Assembly (NCBI GenBank): GCA_964634875.1
Contig: CAZWKA010000008.1
Span: 978 to 64,977, forward strand
Direction: 5' to 3'
Origin: an uncultured Gammaproteobacteria bacterium
GTDB taxonomy: Bacteria > Patescibacteriota > Patescibacteriia > Magasanikbacterales > GWA2-37-8
Length of the DNA stretch: 64,000 bases
Every line of letters begins with the position of its first letter. Position 1 is the first letter of the stretch. Of the stretch, positions 5,943 to 30,076 are shown one piece after another. A program made the position numbers and the translations under genes. The notes under the pieces are model-generated. The model saw only the letters and a program-made list of their open reading frames with translations, made no database searches and had not been told where the DNA came from.

Positions 5943-6377
5943 TTAGAGCAGTTGAGTAAAGCCAAGATCTACTAAAGTCGCGACAGCTTTCTTAAAGCCA
6001 TCCTCTCTGATCAACATGTAATCCTTCGAATAAGTTGAGACAATGGAGAGATTCAACTGAGCATCTGCTATCGCCTGACTAATCGTCGCCAAAAAACCAA
6101 CAGCGTACAACGGCACTGAAGCATGCAAAGTAATCAGGCGATAAAAATATCTATTTTTTTCAAGGAGCTGCAGCTCCGCTAACAAGGCCTCTTTGGTTAC
6201 AACCGTAATTTCATCTGCATCATGCGTTATCAGGAAATGACTACCTTTTACCGGCACCACTGACACTTTCGCATACACATACCTGTCTTCCTCTACGCGA
6301 AAACTACTTTGGTGGATTATTTCTTCAATAGGACTTTGCACACCGCTTTCGCTTACAGAAGATACTTGCCGGTCCAA
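5943..6377 (-). CDS. ACT-domain-like small regulatory protein (hypothetical)
   Basis: 144 aa. The C-terminal half has a beta-alpha-beta-beta-alpha-beta ACT-like pattern (..ITLHASVPLYAVGFLATISQAIADAQLNLSIVSTYSKDYMLIRE..). Weak assignment. Confidence 0.35.
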   Translation of the reverse strand: MDRQVSSVSESGVQSPIEEIIHQSSFRVEEDRYVYAKVSVVPVKGSHFLITHDADEITVVTKEALLAELQLLEKNRYFYRLITLHASVPLYAVGFLATISQAIADAQLNLSIVSTYSKDYMLIREDGFKKAVATLVDLGFTQLL

Positions 6378-9145
6378 CTTTTCTTACACTTCCGGATGTC
6401 GTCCGGAGTACCTACCGCAACGACTTCCCCGCCCCCGTCGCCACCTTCGGGCCCCATATCAATCACCCAATCGGCCGAACGGATGAGTTCGACATTGTGC
6501 TCGATGATAAGAACGCTATTCCCCTTTTCAACCAAACGATCTAAGACTTGCAGCAACCGTTTGATATCTTCAAAGTGCAAACCGGTCGTTGGCTCATCGA
6601 GAATATACAAAGTCTTGCCAGTAGAATGACGCGATAGCTCCAAAGATAATTTGATACGCTGCGCTTCACCGCCCGAAAGGGTGGTGGCGGACTGTCCGAG
6701 CTGGACATAACCCAAACCAACTTCGCGCAGCACATTCAATTTTTCCGCAATCGGTGCAACATCAGCAAAGAATTGATAGGCTTCTTCAACAGTCATGCGC
6801 AAGACGTCCGCAATATGCTTATTGTGGTAGTGTACTTCCAGAGCTTCGCGGTTATACCGCCAGCCATTGCACTCATTACATTCCACGAACACATCAGCCA
6901 AAAATTGCATCGGGATACGGATAGAACCGTCCCCTGAACAGGCTTCACAGCGTCCACCACCTTTAACGTTAAAACTAAATTTACCCGCGTCATACCCGCG
7001 CATACGGGCTTCCGGCAGCGCAGCAAAAAGGTCGCGGATCAAATTAAAGATACCGGTATAGGTCGCTGGGTTCGAACGCGGCGTGCGGCCGATCGGTGAT
7101 TGGTCGATCGCAATAACTTTATCAATATTTGATAAACCCTTAATAGATTTGTGAAGCCCAGGCTCTTCTTTGGCTCGATAAAAATGCTTAGCCAGAGCCT
7201 TACTCAGGATATCAATAATCAGAGTTGATTTTCCTGAACCCGACACCCCGGTAACACAGACCAGCTGACCCAGGGGAATTTCAACATCAACATTCTTTAG
7301 ATTGTGTGCCTGAGCACCTGTAATAACAATTGATTTCGTACCTGCAGCGCCTTTTTTAGGCATCTTTTTGCGGCGAGCAATCGTTGTCCGGCCAAACAAA
7401 TAATCTGCCGTGAGGGATTGTTTTACCTTCTTCAAATCCGGCAAGGTTCCGGCTCCCATCAGCTCACCTCCATACACCCCGGCTCCCGGACCAATGTCAA
7501 TCAGATAGTCAGCGGCATGCATCATTGTCGCATCGTGTTCAACAACGACAATCGAATTACCAAGGTCACGGAGATATTTTAATGTTTCAATTAATTTTTT
7601 AGTGTCACGCGGATGGAGACCGACTGACGGCTCATCTAAAATATAGATAATACCAGACAAACCACTGGATAATTGCGTCGCCAAACGCACGCGGGTAACC
7701 TCACCACCCGAAAGCGTATTCATTGCACGATCTAAGTTCAGGTAACTTAAACCAACCCGCTCCAAATTACCAAGACGAGGGACGATTTCTTTGGTAATAA
7801 GCTGCATGATCTTTGACTTGGAAGCTTTTGCTTTGGTTTGCAAAATCTCTTTCATCTCTTCGATACTCATGGAGGCGAGTTCTGAGATTGTATATTCCCC
7901 AATTCTTACTGATAAAGACTCGGGACGCAAACGCTTGCCTTGGCAGACAGAGCAGATCTTTTCGCGCATATACTGTTCAATTTCTTTGCGCACATACTCC
8001 GAAGTCGTCTCGAGGTGTTTGGCCATGAGGTCTGGGATAACCCCTGGGAACGTGATTTTTTTACCTTCTACCAGGAAGGTTTCCGGTCCCGTGCCATACA
8101 AAATGACATTAAGCGCTTTGGCTGCAAGATCAGCAACCGGAGTATTTAGTGAGAAGCCGTGGCGTTCCGAAACTGCTACTAATAATTTTTGGTAGGCATT
8201 ATGACTTCCTGTAATACGTGTCCAGGGCTGAATCGCTCCTTCCGCGAGGGTCAAGCGCATATTCGGAATAACCAAGCTAGCATCAACTTCCATCGTAACC
8301 CCAAGCCCAGTACAGCGCTGACAAGCGCCGTAGGGACTGTTGAAACTAAAACTACGCATATCAAGAACTGGCATGGTACGTCCGCAGTTGGAGCACAAGC
8401 CGATCGTTGAAAAAACGTGCGTTTTTTCATTGATGAGCACATGAACCAAGCCATCACTGAGGTCCAGAGCAACTTCTACCGGCTTCGTCGGGTCTTGTTT
8501 TTTAACATCAACAATCTTGCCGATCAACAACTCAACGTTATAGGTACTTGTTGCGTCAAAATCATACTGGGGAAGCTCGTTGATTTTGAGCTCTTCACCG
8601 TCGATACGGAGCCACTCATAACCCGACTTCTCTACTTGTTCAATGAGCGCCTTATGATCAACTTTGCCTTTACGGATAAGAGGCGCATAAATAAGCACAG
8701 GTGAATTTTTTCGCGCCAACGTTCGAACTGCTTCCACGACTTCGCCAGACGTATGGGTTTCAACTAAAATATGGCAATCAGGGCAATACTGTTCGCCGGC
8801 TCTTGCAAACAACAAGCGTAAATAGTCATACACCTCGGTAACTGTACCGACAGTAGAACGCGGGTTTTGAGTAAAAATTTTCTGATCAATTGCAATTGTC
8901 GGAGACAGCCCATCAATCGAATCAACATCGGGCTTATCACGAGTTTCCATGAATTGGCGGGCGTAGCTTGACAGCGACTCAGCATAACGGCGCTGGCCTT
9001 CGGCGTAGATCGTATCAAATGCCAAGCTTGATTTTCCCGAACCTGATAAACCAGTGACGACGACTAGTTTATTTTTAGGAATTTCAATTGTCAGGTTCTT
9101 CAAGTTATGGACGCGCGCTCCTTTAATGACAATGTTTTCAGACAT
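6353..9145 (-). CDS. uvrA: Excinuclease ABC subunit A (canonical, with insertion domain)
   Basis: 930 aa. Tandem ABC ATPase with Walker [24 protein letters not shown] and [10 protein letters not shown], zinc modules CxxC, and the UvrA C-terminal ..SWTGKYL. Confidence 0.95.
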
Positions 9146-9150
9146 ACAGA

Positions 9151-10521
9151 TTATTTAAAATATTGCTCGTAGTTAAAACCTTCACTGGAATGGTGGATAT
9201 AGGAAGCTTCGATATTGAGCTCCAAACCTTTAGCCAACATTTCTTCGGTGATTAAATATTTTTTATCAATCTTGGCTCGATTCAGGTCGTTCCTAAAAAA
9301 ACTATTCGTACCCAAATCAACTGCTTTCTTCCCATCATAACCGATCCAATGGTCTTGATCGGTAATATTGATGTTACATGACTTATTCATTTCAAACTTG
9401 ATGACGTAACCTTTTAGCGGGGAATTCTTGCTAAACGTATCTTTTGCTTTTTTAATTTCTTCCGGTGAAACAGCTAAAACATACTCTTGATAGTCACCGA
9501 AGGTCTGGCCTCGAGCAGTCCCACCAATTTCACCCGAAGTTCCGTTCTCGTTTACCCACCACAACTCTTCTTCAGAAACATCAATCATTTTGGGATAGCT
9601 CCAACCATTAAACAAAGGATTTAAACAGCCTGGGTCACGCAATGGCGAAATATACGTTACCTTACCGCTCACCGTCCCTTTTATGCAGTTATAGGGGTTG
9701 GCCGGGTCTTTGCCACCAAAACCAACACACACTGTTCCAGGTCCTCCACAATAATCCCCAAAACAGGTTGCTGCTCCGGCATTTTGGATAAAAAACCGAT
9801 GGCCGCAATAGAACTTTTCTAAGTTGGCCTGCTTCTTATCTTCAAGCGACAAGTCAAACTGAGTTTTTTCATCCTGCTTGACTGGCGATTTTTGATCTTT
9901 AAAATCTTTAGCAAAAGCAAACTTGGTCGAAGGGGCTGTTTGAGAACAAAACGTTGGCGCATAGGCCTGCGGCTTCACCATCCAGACATTCGGCAAACGG
10001 AAACTGACCAGGTCAGGATTGAGGGTGCTTAAGATAAAATACGACAGGTACGCGATCAAAAGGCCGACCAACGCCCCAGCAATCCGGCCTTTAGAGTGCG
10101 TAATTGTTTCGCTGTTACCACCGGACAGCGCCCATTGGAAACCAGAAACAATAATAACAAGCACAGAAACTATTCCAGCGATACCGATCGCATACTTATA
10201 CATCGAACCAATGAAATCACCAATGTGTTCAAACTGCGTACGACCACCAAAAGCAATCGACGTTTTGGTTTGGCCTGCCGGTAAACATTTCCCCCAATCC
10301 TGACCTTTGCAGTCGCCTGAATTTTCAATCCAGCCTTTGGCCAGTGCTTCTGGGCTCGCTCCAGCGTCGAGGATTGCTCGCTGAGCAATGCAATCCGCTT
10401 TATGCCAGCAAAGTGGGTTGTACTCAGGAATAACCGGCTCACCTTGAGCAAACACGGGGACAGCCAAGGCAATACTGAAAGCGAAGGCAAAAAAAATGAG
10501 GCCACCTATTCTTTTAAACAT
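9151..10521 (-). CDS. Cysteine-rich secreted/membrane protein (hypothetical)
   Basis: Signal peptide (..[10 protein letters not shown]), a Cys-rich N-terminal module, two adjacent TM helices, and a large C-terminal domain with more Cys pairs (about 14 Cys in total). No domain recognised. Confidence 0.5.
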
Positions 10522-10530
10522 AGCAAAATA

Positions 10531-11286
10531 TTATTGCTCTTTTAAAAAATTTTCCCAAATAGCGAAGGGAATAGTTCCTTCCACTTTTTCACCATTAATG
10601 AAAAAAGTCGGTGTCGCTCGCACCCCAAACTTGGCACCATCTACATAATCACGGTTAACTGCGGTCTGGGCATTAGAGGTAGCCAGGCAGCGTGCGAGAG
10701 AAGTTTGGTCAAGCTGGGTGGCGCCGACGAGCGTCGCCAGATCTGTTTCACTGAGCACTTCGGGCAACTCGGCTTGGTGGTCAAAAAAATAACGGAGTAC
10801 TGGCCAAAAACGACCTTGCTGCTGGCCACACCAAGCAATCTCAGAAAAACCTGAGGCTCCAGGGTGAGTACTTTCAACCGGGAAGTGACGGACAATGAGC
10901 TTGATTTTGCTACCGTACTTTTCAATGACTTGGCGCATGATTGGTTCGGCGGCAGCGCAATTAGGGCATTTGAGGTCGAGAAACTCTACGACCGTAACAG
11001 GTGCATCGCTCGCTCCCAGGTACGGGCTGTCCGAGCGTTCCAGATCAGCTCGATTGACGGTAACTGACCCGAAAACAGGGCTTGCTTGCTGACCACCAGC
11101 GGCACTTTTTCCGGAATAGACGGTGTTTTGAAGCTGCGCCCCGCGGCCACTCTTAATTTCCTTTAAATACGTATAGGTAACCGCTCCCAACACCCCAATA
11201 AAGACCAAAATAACGAACAAAATAATGCAGAGCATGATCCCCCACCACCGTAAATACCATGGTTTTACCGACCCAACTGTGTCCAT
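10531..11286 (-). CDS. DsbA-like thiol:disulfide oxidoreductase (membrane-anchored thioredoxin fold)
   Basis: N-terminal TM anchor and CPNC active site (..FLDLKCPNCAAAEP..). DsbA-family layout. Confidence 0.7.
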   Translation of the reverse strand: MDTVGSVKPWYLRWWGIMLCIILFVILVFIGVLGAVTYTYLKEIKSGRGAQLQNTVYSGKSAAGGQQASPVFGSVTVNRADLERSDSPYLGASDAPVTVVEFLDLKCPNCAAAEPIMRQVIEKYGSKIKLIVRHFPVESTHPGASGFSEIAWCGQQQGRFWPVLRYFFDHQAELPEVLSETDLATLVGATQLDQTSLARCLATSNAQTAVNRDYVDGAKFGVRATPTFFINGEKVEGTIPFAIWENFLKEQ

Positions 11287-16661: not shown

Positions 16662-17468
16662 TTATTTGCCTAAAATTTGGGTTGCCCAAAAAACCGTGAC
16701 CGTAGCTGCCGTTTCGGCACGAAGCATGGTTTTGCCCAAACTAACGACTACGGCTCCTGCTGCCCGCGCTTCAGCTACTTCAGTAGGCGTAAAACCTCCC
16801 TCTGGGCCAATAAATAAAGCAATGGGCCGGCCGGCCGGTGGAACATCAATTTCGTGAAGCTCTTTTCCGTCTTGGGCAAAAAAATAAATCTGACTATCTT
16901 TAGCTTGAGCAAGTGCGCTGCTCAAGGGTACCGACTCCCTTAGCTCGGGGACAATACTTTGCTCAGACTGCTCCGCCGCCTCAGTGCTAATCCGCTTGAG
17001 CCGTTCTTCATTCAGCCCTAGTTTCACGGTACGTTCCGAAATAAACGGCGCAATAGCACTGACCCCAAGCTCGGTCGTCTTTTCAACCAGGAATTCGAAC
17101 GAATCTCTTTTTAGTATCGCAGCATATAACGTAACAGGTGTACGCGGACGCCAATCCTGAGCTTGCTCGAGAATGTGACCGATCACAACATCATCTGTCA
17201 GCGTGCCTACACGTACCAGAAACTCAGCCCCCTCACCATCGGCCAAAATTATTTTTTCACCAACGACTATTTTGAGAACGTCTTTAATATGATGGATAAC
17301 TTTTGTATCCACAACCCGTACTTCGTCCCCCGCCACTTCGAGCGGACCAATAAAATGATGGAGTTTCATACAATTATTTAATACTTCTTTTACTTCGATT
17401 AAATGTAATTGCAAACCGGTGCGCCTCATCGCGTACCCGCACCAATAAACTGCGGTGTTCGTCGACAA
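16662..17468 (-). CDS. rsmE: 16S rRNA (uracil1498-N3)-methyltransferase RsmE
   Basis: SPOUT C-terminal motifs LFIGPEGGFTPTEV and LGKTMLRAETA. The N-terminal extent is uncertain (overlaps the uvrC 3' end); a start near MKLHHFIG is likely. Confidence 0.7.
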   Translation of the reverse strand: MSTNTAVYWCGYAMRRTGLQLHLIEVKEVLNNCMKLHHFIGPLEVAGDEVRVVDTKVIHHIKDVLKIVVGEKIILADGEGAEFLVRVGTLTDDVVIGHILEQAQDWRPRTPVTLYAAILKRDSFEFLVEKTTELGVSAIAPFISERTVKLGLNEERLKRISTEAAEQSEQSIVPELRESVPLSSALAQAKDSQIYFFAQDGKELHEIDVPPAGRPIALFIGPEGGFTPTEVAEARAAGAVVVSLGKTMLRAETAATVTVFWATQILGK

Positions 17469-18651
17469 ACCCGATAAACGCGGGCGTCAAAGTACCCAAA
17501 ATAAAATCATTCCGCTTACGCTCCGGACCCTTTGCAATGCCCACAACCGGGATAGTGATCTGGCGCTCGCCTAAAACCTGGTTAACTTTATTAACTTGTG
17601 GTCGCCCCCCATCGATCAAAAATAAATCGGGTAAAGGCCACTCCGGATGATTGAGCCGTCGATTAATAACTTCCGCGAGCGAGTCAACATCGCTTTGTCC
17701 TTCAACGGTTTTAATTGTAAACTTCCGGTACTGGCTTGAGACCGGTCCGCTGTTATCAAACACGACCATGCTCCCCACTTTATCAACCTTACCCAGATTA
17801 GAAATATCATACCCTTCGATACGCAGACGTTTACTGCCAGGCTCGCTCGTCGCCGTGTCCGCATAAAAACTATTATTGAGGAGCGCGACATCATGGATGC
17901 GGTAGAGTGATTGCAATTGATTACGCAGGCGTGCCGCAGTTTCAAAATTTTGAGCTTTACTCGCGAGCTTCATTTGCTTTTCAAACTCTTTCACAACTTG
18001 TTTTTTCTTACCATCCAAAAATAAACTGAGGGGACGGATAACCAATTCCTGATACTCCTTTGCAGTGATCGTACCCATACACACCCCCAAGCACTGATCA
18101 ATCTCATAATAAAAACAAGGCCGCCCGACGCCCGGCTCACAGGTTGAAAAACAAAATAACTGACGCAATAATTTGAGCGTTGCTTTGGCATTAAGCCCTG
18201 GGAACGGACCGAAAATTTTTGTGTATTTATTTTTAATTTCAGTGCGGGTCATTGCTTCCAGGTCATGTTCGCGCGCGGTGCGCAGGGACGGAAAAATATC
18301 TTTAGTCAGCACCAAATAATTCCAACTCTTATCATCTTTACCGAGCACGTTATACTTAGGGTGGAAACGCCGGATCGACAAAGCTTCCAAAATAATTGCT
18401 TCCAGTACTGAATCAGTTTGTCGATAATCAATTTTAACAACCTCATGAATCATTTCTTCAATAGGCCGCGGCGTACGCTTCCCACGGAAGTAACTCCGGA
18501 CTCGACTGCGTAGCGAGGTGGCTTTGCCAACATAGAGCAATTCTTTGTTTTTGCCATAATACAAATAAATCCCTGGAGTGTCGGGGAGCTGGGTCGGGTC
18601 GCTCAAATACTCTTCAAGAAGTAACGCCATAGGATATGAATAGTATAACAA
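17374..18651 (-). CDS. uvrC: Excinuclease ABC subunit C, short form (GIY-YIG + Cys-rich + RNase H-like; no obvious HhH tail)
   Basis: GIY-YIG motif (PGIYLYYGKNKELLYVGKATSLRSRVRSYFR), UvrC Cys motif (RPCFYYEIDQCLGVC), and C-terminal ..IDGGRPQ... 425 aa, shorter than the usual ~600. Confidence 0.7.
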   Translation of the reverse strand: MLYYSYPMALLLEEYLSDPTQLPDTPGIYLYYGKNKELLYVGKATSLRSRVRSYFRGKRTPRPIEEMIHEVVKIDYRQTDSVLEAIILEALSIRRFHPKYNVLGKDDKSWNYLVLTKDIFPSLRTAREHDLEAMTRTEIKNKYTKIFGPFPGLNAKATLKLLRQLFCFSTCEPGVGRPCFYYEIDQCLGVCMGTITAKEYQELVIRPLSLFLDGKKKQVVKEFEKQMKLASKAQNFETAARLRNQLQSLYRIHDVALLNNSFYADTATSEPGSKRLRIEGYDISNLGKVDKVGSMVVFDNSGPVSSQYRKFTIKTVEGQSDVDSLAEVINRRLNHPEWPLPDLFLIDGGRPQVNKVNQVLGERQITIPVVGIAKGPERKRNDFILGTLTPAFIGFVDEHRSLLVRVRDEAHRFAITFNRSKRSIK

Positions 18652-20112: not shown

Positions 20113-22746
20113 CTATTTCAACATTCGTTTCAAATATTCACCCGTAAAACTGCCTTTTTTAATCGACACTTCTTCAGGCGTGCCGGTCGCAATTACCTGT
20201 CCACCGCGATCACCTCCTTCGGGTCCGAGATCAATAATCCAGTCCGCGCACTTAATGAGATCGAGGTTGTGCTCGATAACCATAACTGTATTCCCCTGCC
20301 CGACCAACCGATCAAGTACACCAATTAATTTACGCACATCATCATAATGCAAACCAGTCGTCGGCTCATCAAGCAAGTATAACGTCTTCGTTGTACCGTG
20401 CTTTGAAAGTTCTTTGGAAAGTTTGATACGCTGCGCCTCACCACCCGACAAGGTCGTAGCTGATTGACCCAGCGTCAAATAATCCAAACCGACTTCATTC
20501 AAAATTTTGAGCTTATCATTAATAAGTGGGATATCGCGGAAAAATTCTTCCGCTTCTTCCACGGTCATTGCGAGTACCTCGGCGACATTTTTGTCTTTGT
20601 ATTGTACTTGCAAAATTTCGTTAGTAAACCGCTTGCCCTTACAAACATCACAAAGTATCTCAACACTTGGCAAAAAGTGCATTTCAATTTCGAGCGTCCC
20701 GCGGCCTTCACAATTTTCACACCGTCCACCCGGCACATTGAAACTAAAGCGACCACTCTTGAAGCCGCGTAATTTTGCTTCAGCCGTAGAGGCAAATAAT
20801 TCACGAATGAGGTCAAATGCTTTGGTGTACGTTGCCGGATTCGAGCGCGGCGTGCGGCCGATCGGACTTTGATCGATCACAATCATGCGATCAATGTATT
20901 CGGTACCGGTAATTTCTTTGTGCTTACCGACTTCTTTGTTCATGTGATAAAAACGATTGGCCAACGTTTTTTCCAGCACATCATTCATGAGCGTCGATTT
21001 ACCCGAACCCGACACCCCAGTCAAACACACAAACCGGCGCAGGGGAATTTCCACGGAAATATTTTTGAGGTTATGCTCTTCCGCACCTTTGATTTTTATT
21101 TTTGGTGTTGAGGCATCTACCTTACGACGCTTCTCTGGAATTTCAATTTTCAAGTCCCCTCGTAAATATTTGCCGGTAATAGATTTTTTAGGATCACCCA
21201 GCACTTTACACCCCCAGGTCTCATTTTCATTTACTACTGCCTTGCGTTTGGTCGCAGCACTGAGTGCGCCCGACGCAATCTGCTTCCCTTGCAACAATTT
21301 CGTCAGCGGACCCGAAAACACAACGTCGCCGCCATGCTTTCCCGCTGCCGGCCCAATGTCCACAACCCAATCACTCACGAGTATCGTATCTTCATCGTGC
21401 TCAACTACAATAATCGTATTACCAATATCACACAGGCTCCGCAGTGTTTTTACCAACTGATCATTATCTTTTTGATGAAGCCCAATCGTTGGCTCATCGA
21501 GTACATAGAGCGCACCAACCAAACGCGTCCCAACCTGCGATGCGAGCCGGATACGTTGCGCTTCACCGCCCGACAAAGTCCCGGCTTTCCGATTCAAATT
21601 TAAATAATACAAACCGACATTAAACATGAACTGCAACCGGTTGCTGATTTCTCGGAAGACTGCACCGGCAATCTCCACGGTTTTGGCATCGAGCGACAAC
21701 TCGACTTCAGCAAAAAATTCACGCGCTTCACCGATTGTGAGACTCGTCACTTCCCAAATATTTTTTTCTGCCACGCGTACACTCAAAGCCGTTTTGTTCA
21801 AACGCTTGCCTTCACAGACGGTACAAATTTCGGTACTGAACAGCTCCCGGGTACCAAGGCCTGTGCAGGCTTCGCAATAGCCATACGGACTATTGAAACT
21901 AAATAAACGCGGCTCGATCTCGGGAAAACTAAATCCGTCGTTTGGGCACGAGTACTCGGTACTGTAAACATGCTCGGCCTGCCCCGGGTACGCCACTGTC
22001 GCCAAACCATTTGATAAATCTACTGCTTTATTCACTGCTTCCGTCAAACGCAGCACATCGTCATCGCCCCATTTTTTAACGAGCGGGATTTTATCAACAA
22101 CCACCTCGATCGTGTGCTTGTTGTTTTTGGACAATAAAACGCGTTCACGCAAACTTTTAATAGTTCCATCCACCCGCACTTCCAAAAAACCTGAATTATA
22201 TAAATCATAGAGCATTTGGTAATACTCGCCTTTCCGGCCGCGCACGACCGGCGAAAAAATAGTCAGGTGGTTTTCTTCGACTTTAATTTTTTTAGTTTTT
22301 TCATTCTGTAATTTCGTTTCTGCCATAATCCGATCGATCATCTGGTCGACCGTCATCTTTTCGATCTTGGTACCACAGACCGGGCAATAGGGATTCCCCA
22401 CGCGCGCAAACATAACGCGCAGGTAATCATAAATTTCCGTGATAGTCGCGACTGTCGAGCGCGGGTTGGCGCTATGCGCTTTCTGGTCAATTGAGATAGC
22501 TGGCGACAAACCCTCGATCTCATCGACATCTGGTTTTTGCATGCCACCTAAAAACTGCCGGGCATACGCCGACAAACTTTCGATGTAGCGCCTCTGGCCT
22601 TCGGCAAAAATGGTATCAAACGCAAGGCTCGATTTACCCGAACCTGACAGGCCGGTAAAAACAATCATTTTGTTACGGGGCAATTCGAGACTAATATTCT
22701 TGAGATTATGCTCCCGTGCCCCTTTAATAATAATTTTTTCTTGCAT
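20113..22746 (-). CDS. UvrA paralog (tandem ABC ATPase) apparently lacking the insertion domain
   Basis: 877 aa. N-terminus is nearly identical in pattern to UvrA ([23 protein letters not shown]), with a second Walker [11 protein letters not shown] and C-terminal ..FTGEYL. Relative to the canonical UvrA at 6353-9145, the ~105 aa between the ..CTGLG zinc module and the CxxCxGKRL motif are absent. The UvrB-binding-domain region appears present. Confidence 0.85.
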   Translation of the reverse strand: MQEKIIIKGAREHNLKNISLELPRNKMIVFTGLSGSGKSSLAFDTIFAEGQRRYIESLSAYARQFLGGMQKPDVDEIEGLSPAISIDQKAHSANPRSTVATITEIYDYLRVMFARVGNPYCPVCGTKIEKMTVDQMIDRIMAETKLQNEKTKKIKVEENHLTIFSPVVRGRKGEYYQMLYDLYNSGFLEVRVDGTIKSLRERVLLSKNNKHTIEVVVDKIPLVKKWGDDDVLRLTEAVNKAVDLSNGLATVAYPGQAEHVYSTEYSCPNDGFSFPEIEPRLFSFNSPYGYCEACTGLGTRELFSTEICTVCEGKRLNKTALSVRVAEKNIWEVTSLTIGEAREFFAEVELSLDAKTVEIAGAVFREISNRLQFMFNVGLYYLNLNRKAGTLSGGEAQRIRLASQVGTRLVGALYVLDEPTIGLHQKDNDQLVKTLRSLCDIGNTIIVVEHDEDTILVSDWVVDIGPAAGKHGGDVVFSGPLTKLLQGKQIASGALSAATKRKAVVNENETWGCKVLGDPKKSITGKYLRGDLKIEIPEKRRKVDASTPKIKIKGAEEHNLKNISVEIPLRRFVCLTGVSGSGKSTLMNDVLEKTLANRFYHMNKEVGKHKEITGTEYIDRMIVIDQSPIGRTPRSNPATYTKAFDLIRELFASTAEAKLRGFKSGRFSFNVPGGRCENCEGRGTLEIEMHFLPSVEILCDVCKGKRFTNEILQVQYKDKNVAEVLAMTVEEAEEFFRDIPLINDKLKILNEVGLDYLTLGQSATTLSGGEAQRIKLSKELSKHGTTKTLYLLDEPTTGLHYDDVRKLIGVLDRLVGQGNTVMVIEHNLDLIKCADWIIDLGPEGGDRGGQVIATGTPEEVSIKKGSFTGEYLKRMLK

Positions 22747-23610: not shown

Positions 23611-26079
23611 GTGACTCCCATGGCAGCACGCGGACACCCCACAATTGGAGCCCGGTTCGGAGCATTCTACGCGCTCCTGTGTGCGCTCGTCGCGCGAGCG
23701 AACGAGCGACCCGCCATCCCGGACGACGACAAGTTCCCGCCCGGCGTCCCCTACTCCGTCGGCAACGAGCTAGCGGAGCGCTTCAGCTTCTACGGCTTCA
23801 AGACGATCTTGAAGCAGTACCTGACGGCCCTCCTCCTCAACTTCGTCAACGAGGCGATGCTCCCCGCATCGGTCGTCGCCGACGCGATGGTGAAGAGCAC
23901 GGAGTACGTGCACCTCTTCAACGCGGCCGTCTACTCCTTCCCGCTGATCGGCGCCCAGATCGCTGATCGCTACCTCGGCAAGTACCGTACGATCTACTAC
24001 GTGTCGATCGGGTACGTGATCGGCCACGCCATCCTCGGTGTCGCCACTCACTTCGGCACCATCCACCTGTACGAGGCGGCCAAGATCTCCTTCGGCCTCG
24101 GCCTCGGCCTCATCGCCGTCAGCGCCGGCGGCATCAAGCCGTGCGCCTCCTCGAACCTCGGCGACCAGTTCCCGCCCCTCAGCAAGCTCATCCTAATCGC
24201 CTTCTCGCTGTTCTACTTCGCCATCAACTACGGCTCGCTCGGCGCCACGATCCTGACGCCGATCATGCTCGACAAGTTCGGGCCCGAGGTCGCTTTCGGC
24301 CTGCCCGGCATCGCGATGGCGATCGCCACGATCGTCTTCCGCATCGGCGAGAAGAAGTTCATCAAGGCGCCGCCCACCCCGGGCGGCAAGCTCGGGCTCC
24401 TCGATAGCCTCGTCACGACGCTGCTCCTGTCCCCGCTGTTCGCCACCGTCATCGGCTACTTCGTGCTCTGGCAGAAGGACGCCGAGATTGCCGAGAAGGC
24501 ATTCAACAAGGCTAACGAGGTGGCGATCCGCGCCGCCGAGGCTCTCGGCCAGACACCGCCGGAGTTCCACATCACGTGGAGCTTCGTCCAGAACTACCTC
24601 ACCAGCCACTGGTGGCTCTTCGCCCTGACCGCCGCCGCCATCACGCTCGGCTCCATCATCTTCATTGTCCGTCAGCGGCGGCAGCCCGACAATACGAGCT
24701 TCCTTCCCATCCTCATCTGGTCGCTGAAGAACCGACATCTGCGCAAGCAGGGCGACGACTTCTTCGATCCGGCCCGCAATAAGTTCGGCAAGGAAGCCGG
24801 TGACGGCCCCCCGGCCGTGCTCCGCATCATGGTGGTCTTCGGGATGGTCGCCGTGTTCTGGGCGCTCTTCGACCAGCACTCCTCGACCTGGGTCGACCAG
24901 GCCAAGATGATGGCTCTCCACCTTATCGTCCCCGCGTGGCTGGGGTACTGGACCCTCGCCACGTTCACCATCATCATCCTCTACGTGGGCATCGGGCTGT
25001 TCTGCCGCCTGGCCAACCGCCCGCCCAAGCGCCTGACCACCTACACCATCCTCGGTCTGCTCGCCTTCTCCGGCTTCCTCTCCGGCGGCCTCGACCTCTT
25101 CGGCCCGCCGATCGGCAACCGGGTCATCCCGGTGATCGTGAAGACGGACACGCCCACGAACCTGAACGAGGCGAACACCGTCATCAAGAAGAAGCTCCGC
25201 GAGGAAGTCAACGTCTCGGTGATCGTCGTCCGTTCGTCGGTCTACAACCCCAAGAAGGAGAAGACCACTCTCACGACGGCCGACTTCCGCCGTGCCACTC
25301 CGCTGGACGCGCTGATCGCGACCATCGGCCTTCCGGACGCCATGACCCCCGCCAACCTCGCGGAGGCCGCGCGTCTCGGGGTCGAGCTGAAGAACTACTC
25401 GAGCGTCAGCGCCTTCCAGGCCGACATCGAGGCCCGGCGTACCGTCAAGCTCAAGGAGCAACGGCCGCACACCCTCACGCTCATGATTTCCCCGTCGCAA
25501 CCCCAGGCGGCCAACCCGCTCTTCGTCATGATCATTATCCCGCTCCTCACCCTCATCCTCGGCTTCATCGCCACGCGCTACGGGATTGTGATCCGGCCGC
25601 TCTACATCATGGCCGTAGGCATGTTCCTCACTGCCTTCTCGTTCGTGATCGCCGCTCTCGTGCAGCGCCACGTGCAGGAGTCAGGTGAGGGCGTGGTCCA
25701 CGTGCTGTGGCAGCTGCCGCAGTACTTCAGCATGACGGTGGCCGAAGTGATGGTATCGATCACCGGCCTCGCCTTCGCCTACACCCAGGCCCCGCGCGCC
25801 ATGAAGGCCACCGTGACCGGCTTCTTCAACTTCACCGTGGCGCTCGGCAACCTGATCGTGGCCTTCCTCGCCCCGCTCGAAAAGCTCAGCCTCGCCTACT
25901 TCTTCTGGGTGTTCGCTGGCATCCAGGGTTTCGCCGCAATCATCTTCGCCATCCTCGTCTACTACTACGTGCGGCGGCTCAAGACGGACGAGCGGAAGGC
26001 CGAGAAGGCCACCCTGAGCGCCACCCCGTTCATCATCGACACCATACAGGCGCTCGAGGGCGAGAAGAAGTTGCCCTGA
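23611..26079 (+). CDS. POT/PTR2-family proton-dependent oligopeptide transporter, unusually long (822 aa) with a large hydrophilic insert
   Basis: PTR2 signature motifs GNELAERFSFYG, GGIKPCASSNLGDQF, FSLFYFAINYGSL and FWALFDQ. About 66% GC and SD GGAG upstream. A ~150-200 aa non-membrane segment (about nt 25130-25500) lies between late TM helices. Many overlapping ORFs on both strands are artefacts of the high GC. Confidence 0.8.
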   Translation: MTPMAARGHPTIGARFGAFYALLCALVARANERPAIPDDDKFPPGVPYSVGNELAERFSFYGFKTILKQYLTALLLNFVNEAMLPASVVADAMVKSTEYVHLFNAAVYSFPLIGAQIADRYLGKYRTIYYVSIGYVIGHAILGVATHFGTIHLYEAAKISFGLGLGLIAVSAGGIKPCASSNLGDQFPPLSKLILIAFSLFYFAINYGSLGATILTPIMLDKFGPEVAFGLPGIAMAIATIVFRIGEKKFIKAPPTPGGKLGLLDSLVTTLLLSPLFATVIGYFVLWQKDAEIAEKAFNKANEVAIRAAEALGQTPPEFHITWSFVQNYLTSHWWLFALTAAAITLGSIIFIVRQRRQPDNTSFLPILIWSLKNRHLRKQGDDFFDPARNKFGKEAGDGPPAVLRIMVVFGMVAVFWALFDQHSSTWVDQAKMMALHLIVPAWLGYWTLATFTIIILYVGIGLFCRLANRPPKRLTTYTILGLLAFSGFLSGGLDLFGPPIGNRVIPVIVKTDTPTNLNEANTVIKKKLREEVNVSVIVVRSSVYNPKKEKTTLTTADFRRATPLDALIATIGLPDAMTPANLAEAARLGVELKNYSSVSAFQADIEARRTVKLKEQRPHTLTLMISPSQPQAANPLFVMIIIPLLTLILGFIATRYGIVIRPLYIMAVGMFLTAFSFVIAALVQRHVQESGEGVVHVLWQLPQYFSMTVAEVMVSITGLAFAYTQAPRAMKATVTGFFNFTVALGNLIVAFLAPLEKLSLAYFFWVFAGIQGFAAIIFAILVYYYVRRLKTDERKAEKATLSATPFIIDTIQALEGEKKLP

Positions 26080-26270
26080 CCCCCAACCCAGGTGACCCGG
26101 CTGCCCCGCATGTTGTGCGGGGCAGCCGGCCCTTCCCTTTCTCCGCTTCACCGCGGCACTAGGGAAGAGGCAAGTGTAACTTGTCGCCTTCTTATCTGCT
26201 TCAGTCTGGAGCCAATAAGAAGACCCGAAATTATCCCGCCGAGCGGCGAGTATTTTATTTTCCTCAACCG

Positions 26271-26299
26271 TTGACATCACCGTAAAATCATGCTAACTT
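26271..26299 (+). promoter_or_regulatory. Sigma70-like promoter (TTGACA-17-TAACTT)
   Basis: TTGACA 26271-26276 and TAACTT 26294-26299, upstream of the second transporter gene. Confidence 0.4.
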
Positions 26300-26432
26300 C
26301 CTAAGTTAAGTTTTTTAAGGTACACCTTAACTATTCTCTTTGAAAACGTTAGCCGCTTGAAAACGTTTCATATCCTCGACCTGAGGATTGTGGGACACAA
26401 CAAGCTACTAGCAACACGCATGGAGGTTGAAC

Positions 26433-27827
26433 GTGAACAACAACCGACCCGACCTGTCGCGAGCACTGCGAAGCGCTCTTCAGGAGATCATCGCCCCGTT
26501 CCGCGATTTCATCCATGCACCGCGGGCGCTCTGGGGCGTGAACATCCCCTACTTCTTAGAAGGGCTCGTCTACTTTGGCATCCTGACTGTCCTCACGAAA
26601 TTCCTGTCCGAAAATGTCGGCCTTGGCGACATTACCGGCGGCTGGGTCGTAGGAACATTTACCGGCCTGATCACTGGGACAATGTTTCTCTTGGGCGGAA
26701 CGGCTGACCGTTGGGGCGTGCGCAAAGCGATTATCATCTCGCTGACGCTCATCTTATTAGGACGGATCATGCTCAGCTTGGGCGAACTGATGCACCTGGG
26801 AAACGGCTTGTTCGGCCCGCTCTTTAACCTCAGCTGCGCCGGACTCTTCATTGTTGCCATTGGGTACGGGATGTACCAGCCTGCGGCCTACGCCGGCGTG
26901 CGCCAGTTCACGAACGAAAAGACGGCGGCGATGGGTTACGCAATGGTCTACGCCCTCATGAACTTGGGTGCGTTTGGTTCGGGAATCATCTCCCCAATCA
27001 TCCGCCTCATCAGCAAGAACGCTTTTCCACCGAACGGCATCACGGGCGTTTTCTGGACCTACGTCGTGATCACCGGACTCGCGCTGATGCTGACCTTTGT
27101 CCTCCTGACACCAAAAACGGTACGGGCAAGCACGGCAACGAAGCTCGTTTCGGTCACGTCGCCAGTGTCTGAAAAGCCGCCACCTTTTTTCTCGAAGCGT
27201 TGGTTCAACGAGCACCCGCTCACGGACCTTCGGTTCACCTTTTTCATCTTCATCCTGATCCCGGTGCAGACCCTGTTCGCCCACAACTGGCTCACACTCC
27301 CCCTCTACATTGAGCGAGCCTACGCGGGCAATGCGAACTGGGTCAGCCAGAACTTCGAGTTCTTTGGCAACCTCAACCCGCTTCTCATCTTCATCCTGAC
27401 ACCGCTCGTCGCGGCTCTGACCGCAAAAGTGCCGGTCTTCAAGATGATGATCATCGGGACGCTCATAATGGCCGCACCGACCTTCCTCCTATGTCTCGGC
27501 CCCAAGCCCTGGGTCTTATTCATCTACATCTTCACGATGTCGGTTGGCGAAGCGCTGTGGCAACCCCGGTTCCTGCAGTACGCTTCCGAGATCGCGCCTG
27601 AAGGTCGGGTCGGCATGTATCAGGGCGTTGCCCAGCTTCCCTGGTTCCTCACCAAACTGGTGACTGCCGTGTACTCAGGCTGGTTCCTGAAGCACTACTG
27701 CCCCGCGACCGGCCCCAAGCACACCGAGGCCATGTGGTTCATCTACGGCCTTATCGCTCTGGTGAGCCCGATCGGCCTCTACCTGGCTCGCGGCTGGGTT
27801 GGCCGGTCGATTAACACGAAGCAGTAG
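26433..27827 (+). CDS. Second POT-like MFS transporter (12-TM, ~465 aa)
   Basis: GGTADRWGVRKAI matches the POT GGxxADxxxGxRKxI motif, and the hydropathy pattern is MFS-like. Start taken at the GTG 6 nt after a perfect GGAGG SD (the track uses TTG at 26427). GC about 58%. Confidence 0.65.
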   Translation: MNNNRPDLSRALRSALQEIIAPFRDFIHAPRALWGVNIPYFLEGLVYFGILTVLTKFLSENVGLGDITGGWVVGTFTGLITGTMFLLGGTADRWGVRKAIIISLTLILLGRIMLSLGELMHLGNGLFGPLFNLSCAGLFIVAIGYGMYQPAAYAGVRQFTNEKTAAMGYAMVYALMNLGAFGSGIISPIIRLISKNAFPPNGITGVFWTYVVITGLALMLTFVLLTPKTVRASTATKLVSVTSPVSEKPPPFFSKRWFNEHPLTDLRFTFFIFILIPVQTLFAHNWLTLPLYIERAYAGNANWVSQNFEFFGNLNPLLIFILTPLVAALTAKVPVFKMMIIGTLIMAAPTFLLCLGPKPWVLFIYIFTMSVGEALWQPRFLQYASEIAPEGRVGMYQGVAQLPWFLTKLVTAVYSGWFLKHYCPATGPKHTEAMWFIYGLIALVSPIGLYLARGWVGRSINTKQ

Positions 27828-27982: not shown

Positions 27983-30076
27983 TTACTTCTTTTTCGCCGG
28001 TCGTCCTTTTTTACTTTTCTCCACTTCCCCACTCGACTTCTGCCGTGCGGTCAATTCACGAATCTCATCACGCAGTATCGCCGCCAGCTCGAATTCAAGT
28101 CCTTTGGCCGCATCCTTCATCTGCGCTTCTTTGTCTTTAATAATCACGCTGAGCGGCCGATCGTCCCCAAGCGTATCAAGGTTCGCAAGTTCGGCGCGGC
28201 GACGTTTATGTTCCTTTGTATTTCCACCGGGTGAAGTTTCGCTAATACCAAACTCTTCCAAAATATTACGAATTGTTTTTTGAATTGTTTTTGGAGTAAT
28301 ACCATGTTCCTCATTATACGCCAGCTGAATTTTACGGCGACGATTGGTTTCGGCAATCGCACGCTCGATCGAACCAGTGCTGTGGTCAGCATACAGCACC
28401 ACCTGCCCATTCACATTACGCGCCGCGCGGCCGATCGTCTGGATCAAACTCGTTTCACTGCGCAAAAACCCTTCTTTATCAGCGTCAAGAATTGCAACCA
28501 GCGACACTTCTGGCATGTCGAGTCCTTCACGCAAAAGATTAACTCCAACCAAAACATCAATCTTGCCTTGACGCAACTCCATGATTACCGTAATACGATC
28601 AAGCGTCTGGACATCGCTGTGCAAAAATTTTACTTTCACTTTCTTCTCTTCCAAAAATTGCGTCAGGTCTTCAGCCATGCGCTTCGTCAGTGTAGTGACC
28701 AGCACGCGCTCTTTGGCCGCAATGCGTTCATCAATCCGGATCATCAGGTCTTCGATCTGCGAAAGGCCGTTGTCAGCTTTGCTCGGCGTGATCGGGCGAA
28801 TAATAACTTCCGGATCAATTAAACCTGTCGGACGGACGACTTGCTCCACCACTTGCTTACTTTCACTAATTTCGTATTCGGTCGGGGTTGCCGAAACATA
28901 CACCACCTGGTCAACTAATTTTTCAAATTCTTCGTAGCGCAGCGGTCGGTTATCACGCGCGCTCGGCAACCTAAACCCGTGTTCGACCAACGTGTCTTTA
29001 CGTGCTCGGTCGCCATTATACATAGCACGCACCTGCGGCACTGTTACGTGCGACTCATCAATAATGGTTAAGAAATTTTTTGCCCCATGCTTGAAATAAT
29101 CGAGGAGCGTAAACGACGGTTCACCTTCGGACCGACCTTCAAAATGACGGGAATAATTTTCAATACCGTTGCAATACCCAATATTTTTAATCAGTTCCAA
29201 ATCATAACTCACCCGACGCTTCAAACGGTCGCGTTCCAGTAATTTTCCTTGCCGGTCAAAAAGCGCTAACTGTTGTTCAAGCTCATCTTTGATACGGACG
29301 AATGCACGTTCCCGCGCTTCCTCGCCAACCACATAATGTTTTGCCGGAAAAAGCCACACATCTTCTTGCTCGCGTTTAATTTTGCGCGTCAGCGGATCAA
29401 CCTGCTCAATACGATCGATGTGCGCGCTGATCTCGAAACGATAAATCATCTCTTCGTTCACCGGCATAATCTCGAATACCTGCCCCTGCATCCGAAAGGT
29501 ACCGCGGCGCATGTCTGCGGTTGTACGTTCGAATTGCATGCCAATGAGCTGTTCCATCATGCCGCGCCGGTCGAGATTGTCGCCCACCCGCAGATGCAAA
29601 ACGTCTTTTTCATAGGCCGCCGGCGAACCCAAACCATAGATTGCCGAAACTGACGCCACAATAATAACATCACGCCGCGTCAACAAGGCCTGTGTACACG
29701 CATGGCGCAGACGATCTATTTCTTGGTTGATCTGCGCTTCTTTTTCAATATACGTATCACTGGTAGGAATATACGCTTCCGGCTGATAGTAGTCGTAGTA
29801 GCTCACAAAATACTCGACGACGTTCTCGGGAAAAAAATCACGGAATTCGTTACAGAGCTGGGCCGCCAGCGTCTTGTTGTGCGCGATCACCAGCGTCGGC
29901 ATCTGGACACGCTCAATCACGTTCGCCATTGTGAACGTTTTACCCGAACCGGTAACCCCAAGCAGGGTTTGCTTTTTAAACCCTTCGGCAAGACCTTGAG
30001 TCAACTGATCAATGGCTTTAGGCTGATCACCAGCTGGTTTGTATTGTGAAACGATTGAAAACTTCATACAACCCAT
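27983..30076 (-). CDS. uvrB: Excinuclease ABC subunit B
   Basis: Helicase motif I GVTGSGKTFTMANVI, a beta-hairpin region, and a C-terminal UVR domain (..ELAAILRDEIRELTAR..). True start probably the MKFSIV.. Met at 30067. Confidence 0.95.
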   Translation of the reverse strand: MGCMKFSIVSQYKPAGDQPKAIDQLTQGLAEGFKKQTLLGVTGSGKTFTMANVIERVQMPTLVIAHNKTLAAQLCNEFRDFFPENVVEYFVSYYDYYQPEAYIPTSDTYIEKEAQINQEIDRLRHACTQALLTRRDVIIVASVSAIYGLGSPAAYEKDVLHLRVGDNLDRRGMMEQLIGMQFERTTADMRRGTFRMQGQVFEIMPVNEEMIYRFEISAHIDRIEQVDPLTRKIKREQEDVWLFPAKHYVVGEEARERAFVRIKDELEQQLALFDRQGKLLERDRLKRRVSYDLELIKNIGYCNGIENYSRHFEGRSEGEPSFTLLDYFKHGAKNFLTIIDESHVTVPQVRAMYNGDRARKDTLVEHGFRLPSARDNRPLRYEEFEKLVDQVVYVSATPTEYEISESKQVVEQVVRPTGLIDPEVIIRPITPSKADNGLSQIEDLMIRIDERIAAKERVLVTTLTKRMAEDLTQFLEEKKVKVKFLHSDVQTLDRITVIMELRQGKIDVLVGVNLLREGLDMPEVSLVAILDADKEGFLRSETSLIQTIGRAARNVNGQVVLYADHSTGSIERAIAETNRRRKIQLAYNEEHGITPKTIQKTIRNILEEFGISETSPGGNTKEHKRRRAELANLDTLGDDRPLSVIIKDKEAQMKDAAKGLEFELAAILRDEIRELTARQKSSGEVEKSKKGRPAKKK

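Follow-up and report, generated by a model that had tools for sequence, protein, structure and literature searches.

An insertion-domain-less UvrA family encoded in the uvrB-uvrA-uvrC cluster of Patescibacteria

Introduction

Can a UvrA protein without its insertion domain load UvrB in nucleotide excision repair (NER)? This question is raised by a uvrA gene at positions 20113-22746 of a 64,000-nucleotide stretch of contig CAZWKA010000008.1 (assembly GCA_964634875.1, order Magasanikbacterales of the Patescibacteriota), which is referred to here as the window. The window has a GC content of ~45-47% and carries a full excision-repair gene set, all on the minus strand, including genes for two UvrA proteins of 877 and 930 amino acids (aa). 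The papers that defined UvrA architecture describe class I proteins, which have both a UvrB-binding domain and an insertion domain, and class II proteins, which are without the UvrB-binding domain. The insertion (DNA-binding) domain (ID) corresponds to residues 290-400 of Escherichia coli UvrA, and proteins without it are described here as ID-less. The 877-aa UvrA is one of these.

The role of the ID is debated. The deletion mutants of Geobacillus stearothermophilus and E. coli UvrA conflict. Recent cryo-electron microscopy (cryo-EM) papers also disagree, placing lesion recognition either in a pocket of the ID or in ATP-driven changes in the core. A natural, free-standing UvrA without the ID, whose gene belongs to a uvrB-uvrA-uvrC cluster in a major bacterial radiation, offers a ready test case, and one member of the family comes from an organism in culture. 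Since annotation pipelines name both genes of the window plainly "UvrA", the ID-less architecture is invisible in annotations. In the searchable literature, we found neither a natural ID-less UvrA nor the diversity of UvrA in Patescibacteria described, and a mention in paywalled reviews is possible.

The present study revealed a natural and conserved family of ID-less UvrA proteins with a recurring in-frame architecture, which is neither a one-off nor a chance occurrence. We consider it likely that the 877-aa UvrA, a class I-derived protein, loads UvrB in a streamlined NER system and that its ID was lost in an ancestor of much of Patescibacteria.

Results

Domain architecture of the ID-less UvrA

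The features of the two uvrA genes are as follows.

20113..22746, minus strand: gene for the class I-derived, 877-aa UvrA that has no insertion domain (open reading frame, phmmer against PDB, NCBIfam)
21988..22350, minus strand: UvrB-binding domain, residues 133-253, near the class I consensus (PF17760, 78.7 bits)
21937-21948, minus strand: fourth-ligand site of zinc (Zn) module 1, CPND, residues 267-270 (translation)
21814..21876, minus strand: Zn module 2 and deletion junction, C291-E-A-C294 TGLGTRELFSTEI C308-T-V-C311, with a 13-residue connector where a domain of ~110 aa is gone
21187..21288, minus strand: variable insertion of ~32 aa, a loop before the linker between the nucleotide-binding domains (inter-NBD linker), residues 487-520 (BLASTP gap, predicted local distance difference test [pLDDT])
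20641..20721, minus strand: Zn module 3/beta-hairpin element with C676, C679, C699, and C702, sequence CENCEGRGTLEIEMHFLPSVEILCDVC (translation; the cysteines are invariant in the family)
6353..9145, minus strand: gene for the second UvrA (930 aa), which has an insertion domain at residues 283-395 (nucleotides 7961-8299) and a divergent UvrB-binding domain (Pfam, BLASTP)

The 877-aa UvrA is a single unit with two Walker A motifs, not the four of a tandem double UvrA. Its ATPase motifs are GLSGSGKS, LSGGEAQR, and LDEPTIGLH, followed by GVSGSGKS, LSGGEAQR, and LDEPTTGLH. When the two UvrAs of the window were aligned by BLASTP, residues 1-298 and 306-872 of the 877-aa protein corresponded to residues 1-282 and 396-929 of the 930-aa copy, and residues 283-395 of the latter (113 aa) remained unmatched. 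At the positions that they share, the proteins have an identity of ~50-52%, which varies with the alignment used. Pfam detected PF17755 (UvrA_DNA-bind, the ID) at residues 288-391 of the 930-aa copy, whereas no PF17755 match was obtained in the 877-aa protein. PF17760 (UvrA_inter, the UvrB-binding domain) was detected in both, scoring higher in the 877-aa protein than in the 930-aa copy (53.8 bits).

Comparisons with UvrAs from outside the window gave the same result. phmmer matched residues 3-301 of the 877-aa protein to residues 22-304 of the G. stearothermophilus chain 2r6f and residues 304-480 to residues 420-594, jumping ~115 residues. When it was aligned to E. coli UvrA by MAFFT, 0-1 of its residues fell in region 290-400 and 131 in region 131-248. 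An earlier preliminary description of this DNA had proposed, from an alignment by eye, a UvrA paralog that lost the insertion domain and retained the UvrB-binding region. Both parts of this proposal were borne out, and the missing segment is the ID and not the UvrB-binding domain.

The translation places the junction of the domain loss inside 21751-21948 (minus strand). Since Zn module 2 still has its four cysteines, the ID was cleanly excised between two CxxC pairs. We rejected a pseudogene or an assembly artefact because the in-frame architecture is conserved throughout the family. Another possibility was that the extra loop (residues 487-520) makes up for the missing ID. This loop contains Lys/Arg residues and is predicted to be disordered (pLDDT <50 at residues 491-506), and the stretch ranges between 31 and 90 aa over the ID-less family. 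Compensation was rejected because of this length spread and the predicted disorder.

Class assignment

In phmmer searches against PDB, the 877-aa UvrA scored ~1020 bits with class I proteins, 569 bits with Deinococcus radiodurans UvrA2, and 446 bits with Ecm16. The core-only G. stearothermophilus construct 3ux8 gave 859 bits for the ID-less copy and 829 bits for the 930-aa copy. Both UvrAs of the window surpassed the NCBI UvrA equivalog thresholds, and the 877-aa protein exceeded those of NF001503 (1270.2, cut-off 1147) and TIGR00630 (1209.5, cut-off 729.8).

The preliminary description had suggested a comparison of structural models and a phylogeny as checks, and both placed the paralog in class I. 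The AlphaFold2 model of the 877-aa UvrA (pLDDT 73.8) matched 3uwx_A, the UvrA of a UvrA-UvrB complex, best, with a template modeling (TM) score of 0.79. Structural alignments of the model to class I UvrAs were ~110 columns longer than the query. A neighbor-joining tree (807 shared columns, 100 bootstraps, few outgroups) was used for class assignment only. The ID-less family and the ID-bearing family of the candidate phyla radiation (CPR) were each monophyletic in 100/100 bootstraps, and they were sisters in 0/100. The ID-less family grouped with the class I proteins of Bacillus, E. coli, Neisseria, and Planctomycetes. Both CPR families were far from class II-like proteins. For the ID-less UvrA, the distance was ~1.0 to class II and 0.6-0.7 to class I. 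We concluded that the 877-aa UvrA belongs by sequence, fold, and tree to class I and not to class II.

Distribution and conserved residues of the ID-less family

The best 120 relatives of the 877-aa UvrA in the protein database were 71-96% identical to it; PF17760 was present in all and PF17755 in none. For both UvrAs of the window, the top database matches carried the labels Patescibacteria / Magasanikbacteria. A genome scan, which covered one genome per species and loci with flanks of up to 10 kb, yielded approximately 70 Patescibacteria loci (71) with 52-75% identity. These loci came from Magasanik-, Uhr-, Komeili-, Wolfe-, and Nomurabacteria, Paceibacteria, and the cultured Minisyncoccus archaeiphilus PMX.108. 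The family appears to be under purifying selection, judging from identities of 71-96% among the best 120 relatives and down to 52% among the scan loci.

The spacing CxxC-13 aa-CxxC was found in nearly all Patescibacteria loci with a readable Zn module 2, and the corresponding spacing in Planctomycete and Verrucomicrobial (non-CPR) UvrAs was 117-126 aa. Among 74 aligned Patescibacteria members, the insertion-domain region held 0-3 residues, except for two members with 11-12, and the UvrB-binding region held 112-183. The equivalents of the E. coli Walker A lysines K37 and K646 were invariant (74/74), and those of the DNA-binding arginines R712, R722, R724, and R730 were kept in all 74 or nearly all members. 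Zn modules 2 and 3 had four cysteines each in 74/74. In Zn module 1, 65 of the 74 had Asp instead of Cys as the fourth ligand, which may still bind zinc. At the UvrB interface, the equivalent of E. coli R216 was Arg in every member (74/74), and that of E222 was Glu in 64/74 and Asn in the 877-aa protein. The G502 equivalent was Gly in 74/74. The motifs RGRKGE and KHTIEVVVD of the UvrB-binding domain were kept in the ID-less family, whereas they were degraded in the ID-bearing CPR family.

Several metagenome-assembled genomes (MAGs) titled 'uncultured Gammaproteobacteria' or 'Saccharibacteria' (L001, L004-L007, L009, L011, L022, and others) carried UvrAs that were ~73-75% identical to the Magasanikbacteria-type UvrA, which points to problems in the labels of these records.

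The second, ID-bearing UvrA

The 930-aa copy differs from the ID-less UvrA at key positions. In the ID-bearing CPR family, the R216 equivalent (residue 218 in the window) was Asp/Asn in 31/31 members, and the G502 equivalent (residue 493 in the window) was Ser in 31/31. The G502D mutation in E. coli UvrA abolished damage discrimination (PMC3025350). Since the substitutions of R216 and G502 sit in the 930-aa copy, the labels "canonical" for this copy and "paralog" for the ID-less one, used in the preliminary description, were misleading. The 930-aa copy is the more deviant UvrA, and the ATPase core and UvrB-binding domain are more canonical in the ID-less copy.

The ID-bearing uvrA lies directly downstream, with a 5-nucleotide gap in the window, of a gene for a 450-490-aa membrane protein that resembles a type IV secretion system (T4SS) pilin, and a gene for a DsbA-like thioredoxin precedes the latter. 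This DsbA-pilin-like-uvrA order was found in three genomes: the window (6353-11286, minus strand), L092 (3859-8841), and L093 (3763-8850), the latter two with 74% and 69% identity. ID-less and ID-bearing UvrAs shared a contig or a MAG in at least eight cases, including the MAG RIFCSPLOWO2_02_FULL_44_11 and contigs with shared lengths of 416063, 139214, 1343778, 778751, 96850, 45796, and 181277 bp, and were similarly conserved.

Genomic neighborhood of the ID-less uvrA

The following features surround the ID-less uvrA.

27983..30076, minus strand: uvrB, 697 aa, the upstream member of the uvrB-uvrA-uvrC cluster (Pfam, NCBIfam)
17374..18651, minus strand: short uvrC, 425 aa, with GIY-YIG, UVR, and RNase H-like domains (Pfam; TIGR00194, 334 bits, cut-off 285)
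23611..27827, plus strand: genes for a POT (822 aa) and an MFS (466 aa) transporter, inserted between the oppositely oriented uvrB and uvrA (Pfam)

Neighbors were counted in loci oriented on uvrA, and the denominator for uvrB was the number of loci with a flank of at least 7 kb. Among the ID-less loci of Patescibacteria, uvrB lay upstream in 35/43, and in 34/39 the downstream flank held a short uvrC. The 46 uvrB and 44 uvrC copies all shared the strand of uvrA, with median gaps of 1.2 and 0.7 kb, respectively. The gene order in the window is that of the family, with the uvrB-uvrA gap stretched to 5.2 kb by the transporter genes. The conservation of uvrB and uvrC as neighbors on the same strand favors a role for the ID-less UvrA in classical NER.

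In domain 2 of the UvrB of the window, the equivalents of R183, R194, R213, and E215 of Bacillus caldotenax UvrB, which we take to be the residues that contact UvrA, are all kept; this contact role was reportedly described by Truglio and colleagues in 2004. Domain 2 thus appears to present a canonical surface. The C-terminal (HhH)2 was not found in the window UvrC by Pfam, and the short form (~400-450 aa aligned) also follows uvrA in most Patescibacteria loci. D. radiodurans UvrC without (HhH)2 is still functional in dual incision, with weaker 5' cutting (PMC10085695).

The POT and MFS genes had GC contents of 64% and 58% and third-codon-position GC (GC3) values of 92% and 78%, in contrast to a GC3 of 47-51% in the uvr genes. 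In a 96% identical relative, on a 416-kb contig of MAG GCA_964540825.1, POT and OPT transporter genes occupied the same slot between uvrB and uvrA. None of the 71 Patescibacteria loci that the genome scan returned had a POT or MFS homologue near uvrA. Because of the GC3 contrast, the absence of homologues in the scanned loci, and the different pair in the slot of the relative, the two genes are a sharply bounded, acquired foreign island and not a functional partner of the repair unit. A search for mfd in the window and in Patescibacteria flanks totaling ~1.1 Mb gave UvrB-module matches only, and these sequences are uninformative on whole genomes.

Tandem UvrAs and a Blackburnbacteria UvrA

Loss of the ID was also found in other UvrAs. 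An exhaustive search of representatives with the ID-less UvrA returned among its best 150 matches mostly double-length UvrAs (~1800 aa), the summed scores of which were higher. The occupancy of the insertion-domain region was assessed by alignment in 12 of these tandem proteins. In 6/12, the N-terminal unit had the domain (94-121 residues), whereas the C-terminal unit was without it (0-14 residues) and yet had the UvrB-binding domain. These six were P0243, P0245, P0249, P0257 (Fibrobacterales), P0258, and P0263. The spacing of Zn module 3 in tandem UvrAs was 19 aa. Because the ID-less tandem units were scattered in the tree, some beside ID-bearing sister units and none with the CPR family, the ID appears to have been lost repeatedly among tandem UvrAs, in several independent events and each time beside an ID-bearing unit.

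UvrA P0372 of Blackburnbacteria (Microgenomates; 979 aa) has the ID together with the Cys-to-Asp change in Zn module 1 (CPVD), and a short uvrC of the type seen in Patescibacteria follows its gene (L095, 436 aa). This combination weakly suggests that the domain was lost inside Patescibacteria, in the cluster-encoded uvrA. The suggestion is weak because the overall identity of P0372 is no closer to the ID-less family than that of Bacillus UvrA.

Discussion

Comparison with known UvrAs

The class I UvrAs compared were those of E. coli, G. stearothermophilus (2R6F/3UWX), Thermotoga maritima (3PIH), Mycobacterium tuberculosis (3ZQJ), and Clostridium thermocellum (9GX*). Like them, the ID-less UvrA has two ATP-binding cassette (ABC) ATPase modules, a UvrB-binding domain in which the R216 equivalent is Arg, Zn modules 2 and 3, and the DNA-binding arginines of signature II. 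Its gene is linked to uvrB and uvrC, and it scores above the cut-offs of the UvrA equivalog models. The 877-aa protein is ~45-52% identical to solved class I structures, with TM scores of 0.72-0.79. However, it has a 13-residue connector in place of the ID and a variable loop before the inter-NBD linker, and most of its family (65/74) has Asp as the fourth Zn1 ligand.

The engineered proteins E. coli Δ290-400, G. stearothermophilus ΔID, 3UX8, and 6N9L were deprived of the same domain, and the cuts also fall between the two CxxC pairs within Zn module 2. These are laboratory loss-of-function constructs, whereas the ID-less UvrA is a natural lineage across several groups of Patescibacteria. Furthermore, 3UX8 and 6N9L are without both domains, whereas the ID-less UvrA keeps the UvrB-binding domain. 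The class II proteins (D. radiodurans UvrA2 [2VF7], Ecm16 [7SH1], DrrC, and plasmid paralogues) resemble the ID-less UvrA in that they have lost one accessory domain and coexist with another UvrA. However, the loss is the opposite one, as the preliminary description had correctly stated: class II is without the UvrB-binding domain and Zn module 1, and in plasmid class II-like UvrAs the UvrB-binding region held 3-10 residues and the insertion-domain region 103-118. Tandem UvrAs (P0245, P0257, and P0243) share an ID-less unit with a UvrB-binding domain, which is paired to an ID-bearing unit. In these proteins, two units are fused and the losses are independent, whereas the ID-less UvrA of Patescibacteria is encoded by a free-standing gene.

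A probable UvrB loader in a streamlined NER

Except for the DNA clamp, all parts of the class I cycle are present and conserved in the ID-less UvrA, namely, both ATPase sites, the arginines of signature II, the Zn3 hairpin, and a UvrB-binding domain. We infer that the protein is active in repair and that the loss of the ID is tolerated. The ID-less UvrA would dimerize via its intact ABC core and contact DNA via signature domain II. Its ATPase cycle and Zn3 beta-hairpin would serve to sense distortion. The canonical UvrB-binding domain would recruit and load UvrB, and the short UvrC would then incise. Tolerance may have either of two explanations. The ID may be an accessory DNA clamp that was dispensed with in a streamlined NER, in parallel to the loss of (HhH)2 in UvrC, or the ID-bearing paralogue may supply the missing function. 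There are precedents for a working UvrA of this kind: G. stearothermophilus UvrA without the ID had no apparent defect in vitro, and E. coli UvrA Δ290-400 still incised a 50-bp lesion substrate (PMC3025350). Our results suggest that repair proteins of CPR shed accessory DNA-binding domains in parallel, namely, the ID of UvrA and (HhH)2 of UvrC.

Several points weigh against this explanation. E. coli UvrA Δ290-400 showed poorer damage discrimination on plasmid and reduced global NER on long DNA (PMC3025350). Deletion of the ID from Ecm16 abolished DNA binding (PMC10192343). In recent cryo-EM structures, both IDs clamp DNA in the basal state, and one group proposed a lesion-recognition pocket there. 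Based on these deletion data and the cryo-EM clamp, an ID-less homodimer may be a poor sensor genome-wide. Furthermore, the second, ID-bearing UvrA is equally strongly conserved, which argues that the ID-less protein alone is insufficient, at least in this lineage. The 877-aa protein has Asn at the position of E. coli E222, and one of its Zn1 ligands is Asp and not Cys. The tree is a neighbor-joining tree with limited outgroups, and the AlphaFold2 model is moderate in confidence.

Alternative explanations

The two UvrAs may instead form an obligate asymmetric heterodimer, in which the ID-less protomer gives the canonical UvrB-binding domain and the 930-aa protomer gives the DNA-clamping ID. 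Since the defects of the paralogues are complementary and fused double UvrAs exist, a mixed dimer is a serious possibility, although we consider it somewhat unlikely. R216 and G502 are kept in the ID-less family, whereas both are changed in 31/31 members of the ID-bearing family, which also has a weaker PF17760 match. The two genes share a contig or a MAG in the cases described above, with similar conservation, and the tandem UvrAs that pair an ID-bearing with an ID-less unit (6/12) resemble a Rosetta stone and arose more than once. However, the two genes lie in separate conserved neighborhoods (uvrB-uvrA-uvrC versus DsbA-pilin-like-uvrA), and the two families are not sister clades. The ID-less tandem units are unrelated to the CPR clade, such that the analogy is architectural only, and co-occurrence of the two UvrAs is established within Magasanikbacteria-like genomes.

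We tentatively propose, while regarding it as unlikely, that many Patescibacteria use an asymmetric heterodimer, with the ID-less UvrA loading a single UvrB and the ID-bearing one clamping DNA, or that an ID-less homodimer suffices for their NER. If the asymmetric sensor is real, the double UvrAs that other phyla encode as fusions would combine both roles within a single polypeptide. If an ID-less homodimer suffices, the ID would be dispensable for lesion recognition in vivo.

A division of labor without a heterodimer appears rather improbable. The ID-less UvrA would then mainly serve recruited repair, with lesions found by a stalled RNA polymerase together with Mfd or by another sensor, and the ID-bearing copy would scan the genome. 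This explanation draws on E. coli UvrA Δ290-400, in which repair was shifted toward the Mfd-dependent repair of the template strand and global NER was harmed more than transcription-coupled repair; moreover, the UvrB-binding domain, which the ID-less UvrA retains, is likely also the Mfd-binding domain (PMC3025350). However, the E. coli result reflects a loss of function, not specialization, and the weakened UvrB-interface residue of the ID-bearing copy fits poorly with a main global UvrB loader. The flanks in which mfd was not seen do not add to it, being uninformative on whole genomes.

The suggestion in the preliminary description that the ID-less UvrA acts outside classical NER, in drug tolerance or in displacing DNA-bound adducts and in association with transporters, is contradicted and highly improbable: POT and MFS genes adjoin it in the window, as do POT and OPT genes in its closest relative, but they are compositionally foreign, on the opposite strand, and found in none of the 71 scan loci, POT and OPT are by family annotation peptide importers and not drug exporters, the conserved neighbors are uvrB and uvrC, and drug-resistance UvrA-like proteins such as Ecm16 have the opposite architecture, being without the UvrB-binding domain and needing the ID to bind DNA and for drug specificity (PMC10192343), whereas the ID-less UvrA has class I affinity.

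A minor observation concerns the plasmid database PLSDB. Three multi-megabase 'plasmid' records (H1-H3; Bacillus, Neisseria, and Proteus) look, by their size, like mislabeled chromosomes.

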